A DNA stretch of 64,000 nucleotides from an uncultured Aquiluna sp. (GCA_964388525.1 CAYMAU010000002.1:17034-81033); one strand, 5' to 3'; positions 15,818 through 38,285 are shown, numbered from the stretch's first letter. Made by a program: numbers and translations. Notes: generated from the sequence alone by a model not told the origin.

Positions 15818-15964
15818 CACAGTTCTTCGGGGTCAGTGAAAATCTGAACCGGCGGTTATAGTCCGCGACCCGACTGGAAACATCGCAGCCGGCGATGATA
15901 CTCCAGGCGGTTGACTTGGTGGAAATCCAAGACCGACGGTTAAAGTCCGGATGAGAGAAGAACT
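15818..15964 (+). promoter_or_regulatory. FMN riboswitch (RFN element) controlling the rib operon
   Basis: Conserved RFN blocks: ttcttcggggtcagtgaaaatctgaaccggcggttatagtccgcgaccc ... gaccgacggttaaagtccggatgagagaagaa. The P1 helix is agttcttc/gaagaact. Located 70 nt upstream of ribD. Confidence 0.9.
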
Positions 15965-15992
15965 AGGGCGCTATTTGCGCCCTCTTATTTTT
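15965..15992 (+). terminator. Riboswitch expression-platform terminator
   Basis: Hairpin agggcgc-tattt-gcgccct followed by cttattttt, directly 3' of the aptamer P1 strand. Confidence 0.7.
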
Positions 15993-26911: not shown

Positions 26912-27769
26912 ATGCAATCTGCCAAAGAACATTGGGTTCTGACTTTTATATGCCCGGACCGACCCGGCATAGTCCACGCAATCTCCGGAGCCGTAGTGGC
27001 AGCCGTTGGAAACATTACCGAGAGTCAACAGTTCACCTCACAAGACACTGGCCGATTTTTTATGAGACTGCAGATTGAAGCGGACATAACCAAGGCAGAC
27101 TTCGAGAAGCAATTTGAGGCCATCGCCGAGACTTTTCAGATGCAGTACGTGCTTGACCATGTAGACAGGCCAATGAGCACCGTCGTACTAGTGACCAAAG
27201 CCGATCACTGTCTAAATGACCTTCTCTATCGTCAGCGCGCTGGGCAAATTGGCATCGAAATCCCTAAAGTGTTTGGAAACACTGACGACCTGAACGAGTT
27301 GGCCAGTTTTTTTGGAATTGATTTTGAATCACTCCCGACTAACAATCTCAGCGATAAGGCCGGCTTTGAAAAGCGTTTGCGTGAAATTATTATCGAACAC
27401 GACATCGAACTTATAGTTCTGGCTCGTTACATGCAGATTCTTTCCGCCGAATTCTGCGCGGAGTTTGCCGGGAAGATAATAAACATCCACCACTCATTTT
27501 TGCCAGGCTTTAAGGGCGCGAACCCATACGCCCAGGCTCACGCTCGAGGTGTGAAGCTAATCGGCGCAACCGCCCACTTTGTTACCGAGGATCTCGATGA
27601 AGGTCCGATTATTGAACAAAATGTGACGCGAGTTGAACACGCATCGACCAAGTCACACCTGGTTCAGATTGGCCAGGACGTGGAGTCCAAGACGCTTACT
27701 CAAGCAGTTCGATGGTTCGCCGAGCATCGAGTACTGTTGGATGGTCAACGCACCATCATCTTCCGATAG
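26912..27769 (+). CDS. purU: Formyltetrahydrofolate deformylase
   Basis: 285 aa. N-terminal ACT domain (CPDRPGIVHAISG) plus a formyltransferase core (NIHHSFLPGFKGANPY, GATAHFVTEDLDEGPII). Confidence 0.92.
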   Translation: MQSAKEHWVLTFICPDRPGIVHAISGAVVAAVGNITESQQFTSQDTGRFFMRLQIEADITKADFEKQFEAIAETFQMQYVLDHVDRPMSTVVLVTKADHCLNDLLYRQRAGQIGIEIPKVFGNTDDLNELASFFGIDFESLPTNNLSDKAGFEKRLREIIIEHDIELIVLARYMQILSAEFCAEFAGKIINIHHSFLPGFKGANPYAQAHARGVKLIGATAHFVTEDLDEGPIIEQNVTRVEHASTKSHLVQIGQDVESKTLTQAVRWFAEHRVLLDGQRTIIFR

Positions 27770-29892
27770 CCAATAAAAGTCAGGACTACGGCTACCGCCC
27801 CGCCAACCAACCAGGGTGACATCCAAGCAGCAGAGTCTGGTGCCGCAGGTTTTTGTTCTCTCGAAGCCAACTCGGCTACATAGGCTGACCGTGTAGGTGT
27901 TTCGGTCCGATTCAGTAGATCCACTTCGTCATTTGTCACCGTGGCTTCTCGTTCAAGTTCTGCAGGCTCGGACTCAGGAGTGACCGGCGTTGGCTTTGGC
28001 TCAGTCGGAGCTTTGGGAATCACTTGGCTTGGCGATTCCTGATCAGCGGGAAGAATTTCTTCGCTTTCAATAAACTCCAGAATTTCTTCGCCAACCTCTG
28101 GGTCTATAAACTCAGGAGCCTCGATTGGTGATTGCATCTCATCCGGCAACTCTGGCGCTAGTTGACTCGGAATCTGTAAAGCGGGTTGCCTTGGAGCCAC
28201 CTCCGGCACCGGCGCTGTTGGAGTTGGCACTGGAGTTGGCACTGAGGCAACAAGTGTTAGTTCGAGAACTGCGTCGCTAGCTGGACCTAAGTTTCCGGCC
28301 GCGTCAATCAAAGAAAATGCTGGCAATTTCCAGCTCATGCTTCCAGGCGTGCAGCCAAGATATTCGAAGGTTATTTCTCCTTTTGCGGATGTTGTAACTG
28401 GCAGACAACTGATATCAGAGGTCAGAAACTCGACAGCCGCGTCGTCCATCAGCGAATCTTCATGTCTGAGTGAGATTACCAAATTAAAAGTGCCCTCTAT
28501 CTCTGTGATTTCAGGCTCGAGCCATTGCGATGTCGGAGCGATTGTGTCTCTTAAGAATTCGAGGACAGTAGGTCCGGAAGGGCCCAAGTTGCCCATTGAG
28601 TCACTCACAGCTTTTGAAGCAAGAGTTATTGTGATATCGCCCTCCTGGCAATCGTTCAGGCTTAGCTCGTGGTTCTGAAGCGCAGTTGAGTCACATCCGC
28701 TGACAACAATGTCATCTGAAGACAAACCTGTGTGGTCCTCATCGCCAACAAGGTCAAAAAGGTAGTCGTGATCGATAGAAACAACTTGATCGAAGGTGAA
28801 CTCCGGGCCAGCCAAGTCAAGCTCGATCTGCAGAGAAGCACTCGTGTCATCAATTAGCAAAGCGGCGACTTCAGGTGCCAGTGCAGCTTGAAAGCGAGAG
28901 TCGACGCAGTCCAGAATTTGAAAGACGTATGTTGATCCTGTTACCCCGGGTTCTCCCGCGACGCAGGCAGGATCTGCAATCTCTAGGTCGGTCGATTTAG
29001 GGATGTAGCTGCCCTCTACCTCCATGCTGATCAAGACCTCGTTGTTACTTTGCTGGCTGGCCGCAAATAAGGTTATTTTGGAGGCAACCTCATAGCGAAT
29101 AATCACCCGACCAGATGAACTCTGCACTCCTGCTTGATGGCCGATGTTAGTCACTAGAGACGTGTTTGAATATGAAGACCCGCCGCCTCCGCCGCCGGCA
29201 TCAGAACAGCAAGAATCATCGTCCGCACCGCCGCCGCCGCCGCCAAACCAGCCGCCGCCGCCTCCGCCGCCGCCGGCGTTCCAGCTACTACCTCCAGTTC
29301 CACCAACTCCAAAACCACCTGGCTGCGAAGCGCTGCCGCCGTTAGATGCACCCCCGGAACCACCGGAGTTTTCCCGACCGCCGCCGCCGCCGGAACCTTG
29401 CCCGGAGCCACCGTTTTCAGCAACCAGATTTCCACCGACACCGCCAGCAGCTCCGGCATAACCCCCGCCGCCACCGCCGCCACCGGCCACGACGATTCGC
29501 TCGTTTATGTTGGCACCAGAGCGAATATCGCTGGCTCCCCCACCAGAGCCCTCGTTACCTCTAGATCCTCCGGCCCGGCCACCGCCGTTATATCCGCCTG
29601 GGGCCTCGGCATTAATAACACCCTCACCACCCACAAACACCCAGAACCCAGCTGGGGCATCGATGAACTGGCCGGTTACCCGACCGCCCATGCCGCCTCT
29701 GCCCCCAGCCGCGCCGCTGATTTCAAATGATATGTTTTCGGCGCCGTCGGGGACCGTAAAGTACTCTGGGCTACCGGTGTATTCAAAGACGAGTACGCAG
29801 ATTCCGTCTGGGCACTCTTCGGCTTGAGCCGGTACGGCTCCAAAAGCCAAAGATGAGAAAAAAGCTAAAGCTATGAGTGATCGAAGTTTCAT
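27745..29892 (-). CDS. Secreted, C-terminally membrane-anchored glycine-rich surface protein (Gly_rich/ALK-GRD-like domain + Ig-like repeats + Pro/Glu stalk)
   Basis: ATG 29892 gives the signal peptide MKLRSLIALAFFSSLAFGAVPAQA. FEYTGSPEYFTVPDGAENISFEISGAAGGRGG opens a ~250-aa domain with multiple G6-G8 runs. Three Cys-pair modules follow; two end in a DxxGNLGP motif (DSMGNLGPS, DAAGNLGPA). Then a PTPVPTPTAPVP stalk and a terminal TM helix with a YRKMMVR tail. The track ORF extends to GTG 29940, so the start is not certain. Confidence 0.8.
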   Translation of the reverse strand: MKLRSLIALAFFSSLAFGAVPAQAEECPDGICVLVFEYTGSPEYFTVPDGAENISFEISGAAGGRGGMGGRVTGQFIDAPAGFWVFVGGEGVINAEAPGGYNGGGRAGGSRGNEGSGGGASDIRSGANINERIVVAGGGGGGGGYAGAAGGVGGNLVAENGGSGQGSGGGGGRENSGGSGGASNGGSASQPGGFGVGGTGGSSWNAGGGGGGGGWFGGGGGGADDDSCCSDAGGGGGGSSYSNTSLVTNIGHQAGVQSSSGRVIIRYEVASKITLFAASQQSNNEVLISMEVEGSYIPKSTDLEIADPACVAGEPGVTGSTYVFQILDCVDSRFQAALAPEVAALLIDDTSASLQIELDLAGPEFTFDQVVSIDHDYLFDLVGDEDHTGLSSDDIVVSGCDSTALQNHELSLNDCQEGDITITLASKAVSDSMGNLGPSGPTVLEFLRDTIAPTSQWLEPEITEIEGTFNLVISLRHEDSLMDDAAVEFLTSDISCLPVTTSAKGEITFEYLGCTPGSMSWKLPAFSLIDAAGNLGPASDAVLELTLVASVPTPVPTPTAPVPEVAPRQPALQIPSQLAPELPDEMQSPIEAPEFIDPEVGEEILEFIESEEILPADQESPSQVIPKAPTEPKPTPVTPESEPAELEREATVTNDEVDLLNRTETPTRSAYVAELASREQKPAAPDSAAWMSPWLVGGAVAVVLTFIGYRKMMVR
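29178..29495. repeat. GCC/GGC-rich low-complexity tract encoding the polyglycine runs
   Basis: Runs such as ccgccgccgccgccgccaaaccagccgccgccgcctccgccgccgccggcg on the + strand, which are GGN codons on the - strand. It is an imperfect trinucleotide periodic tract, not a tandem array with a fixed unit. Confidence 0.6.
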
Positions 29893-29904
29893 GACACACA
29901 AACT

Positions 29905-29936
29905 AAAACTCCCCGCGGTTTCCTGCAGGGAGTTTT
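29905..29936 (-). terminator. Possible terminator/attenuator hairpin between icd and the glycine-rich protein gene
   Basis: 9-bp stem aaaactccc/gggagtttt with a 14-nt loop. On the - strand it is followed by agtttgtgtgtc and then ATG 29892. The stem is only moderately GC-rich. Confidence 0.4.
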
Positions 29937-29962
29937 CCACAAGCCGCTAGCGGCCTGGTTTT

Positions 29963-37037: not shown

Positions 37038-38285
37038 CTACTTTCGCTCGGAGGCATCACCGTATGGCCTGGCAATTACTAAAGCAGCTAGGAAGCTCGG
37101 CACTAGGACTTCCACGAAAACCGCCGCCGCGAACACAAGCGGGTCCGCCCCAACAGTTTCAAACCGACCCGGGCCAAAGCTGCCTGATGCTGCCTGGCTT
37201 ACCAAGAAGACCGCGATGGCTGCGGTTGAGGCGGAAACTAACGATAATGACAGAGCCCCACTTAGTCTGGTGCTGTATTCCCAGCGCAATTGATCCGCAT
37301 GCCTCGCTACAAAAAAGGTTGCGATAAGTGCGGCCAAGATAGGAATCAGCACAAAAATGAGTCCGCGCTCAAAGCCTCCGGTTGGCAGTGCTGCAAACAC
37401 CGGGAGCGCGGGAAGTGGGCCCAGCTCAGATGCGAATGGGGAAACATAAGAGCCAGTGCCGATTGCAAATCCAGCACCAGAAATCCAAGAGGCCCCGTAG
37501 ACAATCAGGTTTGGCAAAATTGCCAGCTGGCCAATGGTCACCATGACCCCGCCCAGAATACTCAAGCCCAGCCCCTGATAAAGCCCGATTACTTGAATCC
37601 AGCCGAAACCTAAACCAAGAGCAATCAATGCCGAGCTTGCAAAAATCAAAACTGCCACGACCGACAACCCAACCCTGACACCGGGATTTAGTGCGGCTCG
37701 AATCGACCAGTGCAACTTCGCATAGGCGATCGTAAAAAGACCTCTGATCCATATGCGCTCTTTGGCCTCTGGGCCATTTGCGCCCTCGAATAGCTCAAAT
37801 CTTCTGCCGCTCACGGACGATGCAACAAGTATTAATCCAAAAAATATTGCTGGGTAATAGAGTGGCGCCCAGGTGCCAGCAATCACCGAATCATCCGCCA
37901 CAAGTAATGACGCTCCGTAGCTGATGCCGCCAAAAGCCAGCGACCCGCCCAGCCACGCGGGCCAAAGCGAAGCAGCCGCCGATAGTCGATGACCGATTCT
38001 GATTGCCATTAAGACGATCAGTCCGGTAAGCCCGAGTGGCAGCGCCGTGAGGAAGAAAGCCCCAAAACTGATGCCTAAGAAATCACCTTCCGCGAATCCA
38101 ATTGGAACTCCGCATGCCAGCAAGAACGCATAGACAGCTACCCTCAGCGCCAGGATCCATTCAACTTGTCCATTGCCCTCGATAAACCAGGCCAGTGTTA
38201 GTGGAGCAATAATCAGTCCCACCACGGTGGCAATGATTATCAAAGCCTGCAGTGCGGCTATTGCGAAGCTAAGCCCCCGGTTCAC
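37038..38285 (-). CDS. Polytopic membrane protein, PerM-like (DUF6350-type) by position
   Basis: 415 aa with about 10 TM helices. Sits between sucD and purN, where Mycobacterium tuberculosis carries perM (Rv0955). The assignment rests on synteny and topology only. GTG start. Confidence 0.55.
   Translation of the reverse strand: MNRGLSFAIAALQALIIIATVVGLIIAPLTLAWFIEGNGQVEWILALRVAVYAFLLACGVPIGFAEGDFLGISFGAFFLTALPLGLTGLIVLMAIRIGHRLSAAASLWPAWLGGSLAFGGISYGASLLVADDSVIAGTWAPLYYPAIFFGLILVASSVSGRRFELFEGANGPEAKERIWIRGLFTIAYAKLHWSIRAALNPGVRVGLSVVAVLIFASSALIALGLGFGWIQVIGLYQGLGLSILGGVMVTIGQLAILPNLIVYGASWISGAGFAIGTGSYVSPFASELGPLPALPVFAALPTGGFERGLIFVLIPILAALIATFFVARHADQLRWEYSTRLSGALSLSLVSASTAAIAVFLVSQAASGSFGPGRFETVGADPLVFAAAVFVEVLVPSFLAALVIARPYGDASERK

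Follow-up and report, generated by a model that had tools for sequence, protein, structure and literature searches.

A predicted membrane-anchored surface protein with an ALK/LTK-type glycine-rich domain at a syntenic locus of Luna-cluster Microbacteriaceae

We analysed a 64,000-nucleotide stretch of DNA from an uncultured Aquiluna sp. (GCA_964388525.1 CAYMAU010000002.1:17034-81033; hereafter the window). The minus-strand gene at 27745..29892, between icd and the convergent purU, encodes a 715-residue protein with a glycine-rich domain (GRD) of the family that includes the ligand-binding domain of the receptor kinases ALK and LTK. The reading frame is open over 27745..29940 (minus strand), and from the ATG at 29892 the product begins MKLRSLIALAFFSSLAFGAVPAQA/EE, the slash marking the predicted signal-peptide cleavage. 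An earlier reading of the window, made from sequence alone, had divided the product into five parts; the frame is intact, all five parts are present, and so are the strings it quoted (FEYTGSPEYFTVPDGAENISFEISGAAGGRGG, the glycine runs, DSMGNLGPS and DAAGNLGPA). In the order of the protein, with the three repeated modules listed separately, the features are:

29821..29892 (−): Sec-type signal peptide with the start codon (residues 1-24), predicted cleavage site behind AQA
29083..29814 (−): TNF-like plus glycine-rich (TG/GRD) domain, residues 27-270; the PF12810 match to residues 56-251 lies at nt 29140-29727
28807..29082 (−): Ig-like module 1, residues 271-362, Cys310/Cys329; beta-sandwich in the AlphaFold2 (AF2) model, predicted local distance difference test (pLDDT) score >90
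28537..28806 (−): Ig-like module 2, residues 363-452, Cys400/Cys415, with DSMGNLGP; from alignment, AF2 and hhalign
28243..28536 (−): Ig-like module 3, residues 453-550, Cys496/Cys514, with DAAGNLGP; from alignment, AF2 and hhalign
27829..28242 (−): Pro/Glu-rich disordered stalk, residues 551-688 (138 aa), presumed to be a wall-spanning spacer
27745..27828 (−): C-terminal transmembrane helix (about residues 689-709 by hydropathy), followed by the basic tail RKMMVR and the stop; its final 25 nt are shared with the 3' end of purU

PF12810 (ALK_LTK_GRD, formerly Gly_rich), the family that the sequence-only reading had named, was the single Pfam match to the protein (E = 2.5e-16; 60.9 bits, against a gathering threshold of 24.5 bits), covering residues 56-251 and model positions 12-204 of 243. 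The same family matched 27/27 orthologs tested, with a best E of 1.8e-22. In a full-length AF2 model built on 115 sequences, pLDDT exceeded 90 for residues 30-550 and was below 50 for residues 552-687, so that the glycine region is modelled with confidence and not as disordered chain. A separate model of the GRD alone gave a pLDDT of 92.8 and a predicted template-modelling score (pTM) of 0.87, with beta-strands at either end and about 110 confidently placed residues that fall in no DSSP alpha or beta class.

The top 15 Foldseek matches of the model in the PDB were all ALK/LTK TG/GRD structures (E from 1.2e-5, for 7NX1, to 7.2e-4; probability 1.00). Next came the tail tip of mycobacteriophage Bxb1 (9D93, entry 9d93_Qb; E = 7.5e-4, probability 0.98, template-modelling (TM) score about 0.3), and the fibre of cyanophage Pam3 was also matched (7YPX, entry 7ypx_A; E = 1.1e-2, probability 0.98); beyond ALK/LTK and these phage tail-tip and fibre proteins, the PDB comparison gave no significant match. 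Among predicted viral structures the best matches were virion structural proteins of Synechococcus phages (E = 2.6e-13; H9YQ77, 314 aa, TMt 0.58), and four PHROG families of unknown function matched residues 33-276 with E down to 1.8e-20. A tblastn search of GenBank phages with the GRD returned no match, the low-complexity filter probably masking the query. Together, the fold matches and the missing DSSP class suggest that the glycine runs adopt polyglycine-II (PGII) geometry. That bacterial members of the family have no assigned function, as the sequence-only reading held, agrees with the literature, in which we found no functional study on PF12810 in bacteria or on bacterial ALK-type GRDs; looking to ALK/LTK alone, that reading had overlooked the phage fibres.

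Glycine makes up 35% of residues 27-270, and the conserved polar residues N113, E114, D122, R124, D224-D226 and H252 may form a pocket in the GRD. All ten cysteines of the protein (27, 32, 228, 229, 310, 329, 400, 415, 496 and 514) are invariant in alignments of 27 and of 115 orthologs. The vicinal pair C228-C229 (window 29206-29211) lies inside the conserved motif DDDxCCxD(A/G)GGGGGG, and C27/C32 stand at the N-terminus of the GRD.

The first residues have the classic n-h-c layout of a signal peptide, basic at first, then hydrophobic and ending in AxA; a basic start, hydrophobic region, AxA and CxxxxC occur in this pattern in 109/115 orthologs, and A24 is invariant in the 27-sequence alignment. 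At the other end, a hydrophobic C-terminus followed by a basic tail is present in 115/115 orthologs. In the AF2 model the helix is placed at residues 694-714, and the tail RKMMVR comprises residues 710-715. Neither LPXTG nor LAxTG occurs in the window protein; no sortase-type motif was found in 113/115 orthologs, the other two carrying LATTG, and NCBIfam, which includes models of C-terminal sorting signals, gave no match to the window protein at E<=1. Presumably, then, the protein stays anchored in the membrane and is not linked to peptidoglycan. The signal peptide, the C-terminal helix and the six-residue basic tail predict a single-pass membrane protein with its bulk outside the cytoplasm, in line with the earlier proposal. 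The term 'tail-anchored', which that proposal had used, is a misnomer, because the protein carries a conserved, cleavable N-terminal signal peptide; the predicted topology is type I.

The three modules between the GRD and the stalk are homologous repeats (hhalign probabilities of 98.2, 98.5 and 93.1%; module 1 versus module 2, 98.2%), each modelled by AF2 as a beta-sandwich with one Cys pair. DSMGNLGPS occupies residues 431-439 and DAAGNLGPA residues 530-538. Foldseek matches of the modules include Ig arrays such as titin, invasin and, weakly, the S-layer protein SbsC. A named Pfam Ig family is matched weakly and in few orthologs (Big_12 in 3/27, best 3e-4; Big_13 in 1/27), and in the window protein by nothing at E<=1. 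The stalk is 19% Pro and 17% Glu over residues 551-688, as the sequence-only reading had seen, and the mature protein (residues 25-715) has an isoelectric point of about 4.05.

These parts are under very different degrees of constraint. Across 92 distant orthologs (<45% identical overall), median identity to the window protein was 61% for the GRD, against 16, 27 and 26% for Ig modules 1, 2 and 3, 17% for the stalk and 22% for the transmembrane helix and tail. Ratios of nonsynonymous to synonymous substitution rates (dN/dS), calculated against two close relatives about 80% identical to the window (L028 and L029), were 0.20-0.21 for the whole gene, 0.09 for the GRD, 0.29-0.33 for the Ig modules and 0.30-0.42 for the stalk, compared with 0.02 for icd and 0.03-0.04 for purU. 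In the same comparison, dN was 0.10-0.11 for the gene versus 0.005-0.009 for icd and purU. The gene is therefore translated and under purifying selection; its protein changes some 10-20 times faster than those of its neighbours, with the GRD as the protected part. The dS of the GRD (window 29083-29814 versus L028/L029) was 0.66-0.76, roughly 2.5-fold the values for icd and purU (0.24-0.27) and for the Ig modules; recombination, slippage or codon effects in the GGN runs are possible causes.

Architectural variation among relatives is concentrated in the spacers: the number of Ig modules ranges from 0 to 5, and signal peptide, GRD, stalk, transmembrane helix and basic tail are constant. A syntenic ortholog from Rhodoluna limnophila (L010:960-2462) has no Ig modules, its GRD sitting straight on the stalk, and other orthologs from Rhodoluna/Micrococcales metagenome-assembled genomes (MAGs; listed with L011, L012 and L013) have 3-5.

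Named homologs in NCBI and UniRef, entered as 'glycine-rich protein', 'glycine-rich domain-containing protein' or hypothetical, come from Aquiluna borgnonia, Aquiluna sp. and Rhodoluna MAGs. Genome loci for comparison were chosen through GRD matches, and the fetched set comprised at least 20 genome loci and three metagenome contigs (about 23). Throughout this set the gene lies between icd and the convergent purU, followed by glyA and folD, as in the window; in all fetched ortholog loci with flanking sequence it adjoins icd and/or purU. This synteny, shared across two genera, marks the gene as vertically inherited in the lineage and not part of an island. The GC content of the window, 52%, agrees with the Luna-1 subcluster (PMC12422013). 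At window 27745-27769 the GRD gene and purU share 25 nt at their 3' ends, no terminator separating the two, and a similar overlap is found in L001, L028, L029 and L030.

Between the icd stop codon and the ATG lie 70 nt (window 29893-29962, minus strand), whose layout is conserved at the same place in L001-L022: a variable hairpin, a conserved box, a hairpin of 12-14 bp, and a U-tract leading into the hexamer TANNNT, from which 6-7 nt remain to the ATG. In the window these elements are:

29942..29955 (−): variable first hairpin, GGCCGCTAGCGGCT, directly after the icd stop codon
29932..29942 (−): conserved box (C/T)TGTG(G/T)A(A/T)AAC, just 5' of the second hairpin and overlapping its A-tract; includes the GTG of false starts
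29905..29936 (−): conserved 12-14-bp hairpin, AAAACTCC...GGAGTTTT, with U-tract; its 3' end is 12 nt upstream of the ATG, and the scan tool classes it as terminator-like
29900..29905 (−): TAGTTT (TANNNT, −10-like), 7 nt upstream of the start codon; may be the promoter for a leaderless mRNA

The first hairpin has a folding energy of −8 to −13 kcal/mol in most loci and is absent or much weaker in six (0 to −0.2 in L009, L010 and L015, −2.3 in L006, −4.4 in L020 and −5.1 in L008). The second is present in 20/20 aligned syntenic loci, with compensatory double changes at 6/11 consensus pairs (RNAalifold). Its outer 8 bp (AAAACTCC/GGAGTTTT) are nearly invariant and its inner pairs covary; in a register-corrected count, CG, GC, AU and UA all occur at pairs 9-14. 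In the box, the columns TGTG, A and AAC do not vary among the 20 leaders (alignment A3), and TANNNT stands 6-7 nt before the ATG in about 18/20, as judged by eye. The TGTG box resembles TGTGNATAA, which we take to be the complement of the DnaA-box consensus.

This leader bears on the start codon. Many database entries (P0001, P0002, P0004 and others) begin 16 codons upstream, at the GTG in the conserved box, which gives them the prefix MENSLQETAGSFSL... We rejected this start (the 731-aa form, entry P0001), since the stretch shows RNA-type covariation and the upstream frame is disrupted by 1-nt indels between hairpin and ATG in L002, L004, L007, L009, L010 and L015. The 16-residue 'MENSLQETAGSFSL...' N-terminus is a gene-calling artefact, in which a covarying nucleotide hairpin is read as protein.

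The simplest reading of the leader would be an icd terminator abutting the −10 box of a leaderless GRD mRNA. This reading leaves the invariance of the outer stem and of the TGTG box unexplained, and the hairpin appears more conserved in sequence than a plain terminator requires. Rfam gave no credible family for the hairpin, all matches being far under the gathering score. A regulon-wide motif was rejected: the hairpin is unique in the window, and the only further match in the fetched loci, in L025, belongs to an ordinary bidirectional terminator that lacks the TGTG box.

Beyond the Luna cluster, a phmmer search of 1.84 billion cluster representatives returned 4,625 proteins at E<=1e-3, of which 1,185 reached E<=1e-10. 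Architectures sampled from this family include He_PIG Ig arrays with a terminal GRD and a protein of seven tandem GRDs, and three independent pilin-type proteins (P0104, P0155 and L017, each with an N-methylation motif and fn3 or Flg_new repeats) carry a C-terminal GRD. The GRD is therefore a widespread extracellular module, which typically forms the outer end of a display device. Among the viral GRDs found, the closest are only 37-40% identical. At the large end of the family, the giant proteins P0121 (3070 aa), P0122 (7819 aa) and P0134 (3528 aa) have 7-10 matched GRD stretches, and two large viral contigs carry adjacent multi-GRD genes (L026:2338-7770) beside an intein-containing radical-SAM gene. 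Some bacterial and viral GRD proteins (P0087; BFVD A0A2P0VMX4, A0A1D7SXD8 and A0A8S5PNX1) are automatically named 'receptor protein-tyrosine kinase' in UniRef/UniProt, which looks like mis-annotation spread from PF12810. Pfam found no kinase domain in the window ortholog or in the architectures scanned.

One of the pilin-like proteins, P0104 (L024:1274-3088, on a contig of 41% GC), combines an N-methylation motif and Flg_new repeats with a terminal GRD. Its GRD is 89% identical to that of the Aquiluna ortholog P0015 by BLASTP over 233 ungapped residues (88% over alignment columns), and about 80% identical to that of the window in protein and 76% in DNA. It nests in the window's subclade; over all aligned orthologs the median identity is 63%, and true orthologs from further Luna-cluster species are only about 61% identical. 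GC at third codon positions is 0.30 in the pilin part of P0104, 0.44 in its GRD part and 0.55 in the window GRD. The flanking amidotransferase of L024 has 691 homologs, the nearest one in NCBI being 51% identical, and the flanking genes had no close named relatives among the matches listed; the leader of the pilin-GRD gene is AT-rich and unrelated to that described above. These data suggest a recent transfer of the GRD from an Aquiluna-like donor into the pilin gene of another organism. A chimeric assembly of L024 is unlikely, because the reading frame is kept across both junctions.

The near-identical GRD on a foreign pilin suggests that the module is exchanged as a unit. Taken further, the GRD could be a portable recognition cassette, passed from cell to cell as well as between cells and phages, by which cells recognise one another, an idea that we offer as a long shot. 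If the recipient lived with Aquiluna as a partner or epibiont, or preyed on it, a single specificity would be common to the stalked protein and the pilus tip, through either homotypic GRD-GRD contact or a common ligand. Ultra-small planktonic actinobacteria would then own a dedicated inter-cellular docking system, built from a module that phages use for host finding.

The gene closes a co-directional minus-strand block of 27 kb (27745-55013). Annotation, which left out ORFs below 120-150 aa and three of 155-254 aa, assigned the open reading frames (ORFs) of the block to icd, two ABC exporters, purH, purN, DUF6350, sucD, sucC, pcrA, GDPD and guaA, and further to phosphotransferase system (PTS) EI, mannitol dehydrogenase, EIIC (mannitol PTS), an IMPDH-like gene and guaB. 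The sequence-only reading had called the GRD gene the sole clearly non-housekeeping gene here. The block is real and mostly core metabolism, and it also holds the ABC exporters, DUF6350, GDPD and the mannitol PTS. The DUF6350 gene encodes a 415-aa protein of unknown function at window 37038-38285 (−), between purN and sucD. Elsewhere in the window, an FMN riboswitch (RF00050) lies at 15819-15966 (+) with 100.7 bits and E = 3.4e-22.

The PF12810 family itself, its spread through bacteria and viruses, and the ortholog entries in public databases were known already. The lineage-wide synteny, the constraint map, the variable number of spacer modules, the pilin-borne near-identical GRD and the conserved leader element are new.

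With moderate confidence, we favour the view that the gene encodes a type I, membrane-anchored, wall-spanning display protein of Luna-cluster Microbacteriaceae (Aquiluna/Rhodoluna), whose distal TNF-like/polyglycine module would bind a conserved external ligand in the manner of an adhesin and not of a signalling receptor. The protein would be exported by Sec, its signal peptide cleaved, and the C-terminal helix and basic tail would retain it in the membrane. From there the acidic 138-residue Pro/Glu stalk (about 40-50 nm at full extension) and the three Ig spacers could carry the GRD through and past the Gram-positive wall. The distal domain is predicted to join a TNF-like beta-sandwich to a lattice in which glycine-rich extended strands are packed, and its ligand would be conserved and extracellular, for example a glycan or protein on particles or other cells, giving the protein the role of an adhesin or capture module. 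The idea of an adhesin or a ligand-facing module, put forward in the sequence-only reading, is strengthened because the GRD is the most constrained part, ends pilin-like proteins and matches the receptor-recognition pair of Pam3 (PMC9608196).

Several observations weigh against this view. TM scores to ALK/LTK reach only 0.30-0.43 in Foldseek, with root-mean-square deviations of 9-10 A, and no ALK/LTK match came from searching the PDB by sequence, whether with the whole protein, with the GRD by itself or with the family profile; these structures were reached by fold comparison alone. Phage fibres have hypervariable distal loops, whereas here the whole GRD is strongly conserved, so the logic of recognition may differ. 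Additionally, the cells are free-living and planktonic, and their need for an adhesin is not obvious.

The strongest competing explanation, doubtful in our judgement yet deserving attention, is that the protein serves the structure of the envelope: the GRD would bind the cell's own wall or coat, through for example glycine-containing B-type peptidoglycan or lateral GRD-GRD contacts, and organise a surface layer. A single, syntenic, vertically inherited gene in streamlined genomes would suit such a role, and a GRD this strongly conserved suggests that the ligand is invariant and possibly belongs to the cell itself. An AlphaFold prediction places a polyglycine peptide on the PGII bundle of a phage (PMC13243192), and the Ig-like arrays of the S-layer protein SbsC are among our weak fold matches. 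However, the GRD is membrane-distal, past about 280 residues of Ig modules and the 138-residue stalk, which puts it at a distance from the wall. Pilin-like proteins and phage fibres make use of the same GRD, and no S-layer, SLH or peptidoglycan-binding domains were found by Pfam and NCBIfam scans.

A connection with phages seems quite unlikely. Luna-cluster phages could use the protein as their receptor, or it could hinder infection as a decoy or as a domesticated phage receptor-binding module. Its fold and sequence family are abundant among phage virion and tail proteins, it changes 10-20 times faster than its neighbours, and the number of its Ig modules varies. Yet the exposed tip is where evolution is slowest (dN/dS 0.09), with no region near dN/dS = 1; the phage-facing variant that the sequence-only reading had entertained is disfavoured because the distal GRD is the slowest-evolving part. 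PADLOC matched no defence family to the window protein, the locus is core and syntenic without mobile or defence-island context, and even the closest viral GRDs found are as distant as described above. The baseplate-docking helix and phage gene context of a virion component are likewise missing, the gene occupying a chromosomal housekeeping locus and encoding a signal peptide and transmembrane anchor.

Very unlikely, in turn, is an ALK/LTK-like ligand-sensing receptor, in which ligand-driven clustering would be relayed via the transmembrane helix to a partner membrane protein. The ligand-binding fold of ALK/LTK and the single-pass topology are what recommend it. With only six cytoplasmic residues, however, the protein alone would not signal; it has no kinase or other output domain (Pfam gives PF12810 alone) and no EGF-like module, its transmembrane segment is poorly conserved (22% identity), and its neighbours, icd and purU, include no conserved adjacent partner gene.

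Stalked display of this kind is formally similar to that of bacterial ice adhesins. We find it hardly credible that flat PGII lattice faces bind ice or mineral on a stalk, as in snow-flea antifreeze proteins: PGII bundles do include antifreeze proteins (PMC12227593), but the family is equally conserved in temperate freshwater Rhodoluna, the fold matches are ALK/LTK and phage fibres and not antifreeze proteins, and the conserved polar and acidic residues would be unexpected on an ice-binding face.

The gene offers a tractable cellular bacterial example of the TG module, being single-copy, vertically inherited and strongly constrained. The structure of this module was reportedly solved in 2021 in ALK/LTK, and it is said still to be regarded as a rare fold. 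To our knowledge, its function is known only for animal cytokine receptors and, by inference, for phage fibres. The hosts are cultivable (Aquiluna borgnonia and Rhodoluna spp.) and retain few surface proteins in genomes of about 1.4 Mb. Identifying the ligand would show what TG modules recognize outside animals, and might also explain why streamlined plankton retain a 2.1-kb surface gene.

Among known systems, the TG supradomain of ALK/LTK (PF12810; 7NX1, 7LRZ, 7N00 and 7LIR) shares with the window domain a beta-sandwich interleaved with about a dozen glycine-rich extended segments, and an extracellular position on a single-pass membrane protein; in ALK/LTK its role is to bind ligands, the ALKAL cytokines. 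Unlike those receptors, the window protein lacks a kinase and an EGF-like module and has only six residues in its cytoplasmic tail, and its domain is N-terminal and membrane-distal, where that of ALK/LTK is membrane-proximal. Identity is only 14-23%, with a TM score of about 0.4. We know of no ALKAL-type ligand in bacteria.

Phage fibres and tail tips, whose Foldseek matches are significant or nearly so, provide the second comparison. Pam3 gp24 (7YPX/7YFW), S16 gp38 and Bxb1 gp33/gp29 (9D93) place a TNF-like and glycine-rich lattice at the distal end of an elongated device, as is predicted for the window protein. The TNF-like and Gly-rich domains of Pam3 gp24 have been described as the part that recognizes the host receptor, similar to C. 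elegans ALK (PMC9608196), and ALK, S16 gp38, the Pam3 fibre and Bxb1 gp33/gp29 have been named together as polyproline-II (PPII)-bundle proteins (PMC13243192, 2026). These fibres belong to the virion as trimers that have an alpha-helical docking domain and tips of hypervariable sequence, whereas the protein of the window is cellular and membrane-anchored and has a highly conserved GRD.

With LPXTG/sortase adhesins the window protein shares a signal peptide, a distal binding domain, Ig spacers, a Pro-rich acidic stalk, and a hydrophobic C-terminus with a basic tail; unlike them, it has no conserved LPXTG/LAxTG motif and no NCBIfam sorting-signal match. The bacterial PF12810 'glycine-rich' proteins belong to the same family. 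Other members carry the GRD C-terminally, on pilins or in arrays, whereas the arrangement of signal peptide, GRD, three Ig modules, stalk and transmembrane helix, encoded between icd and purU, is specific to the Luna cluster.

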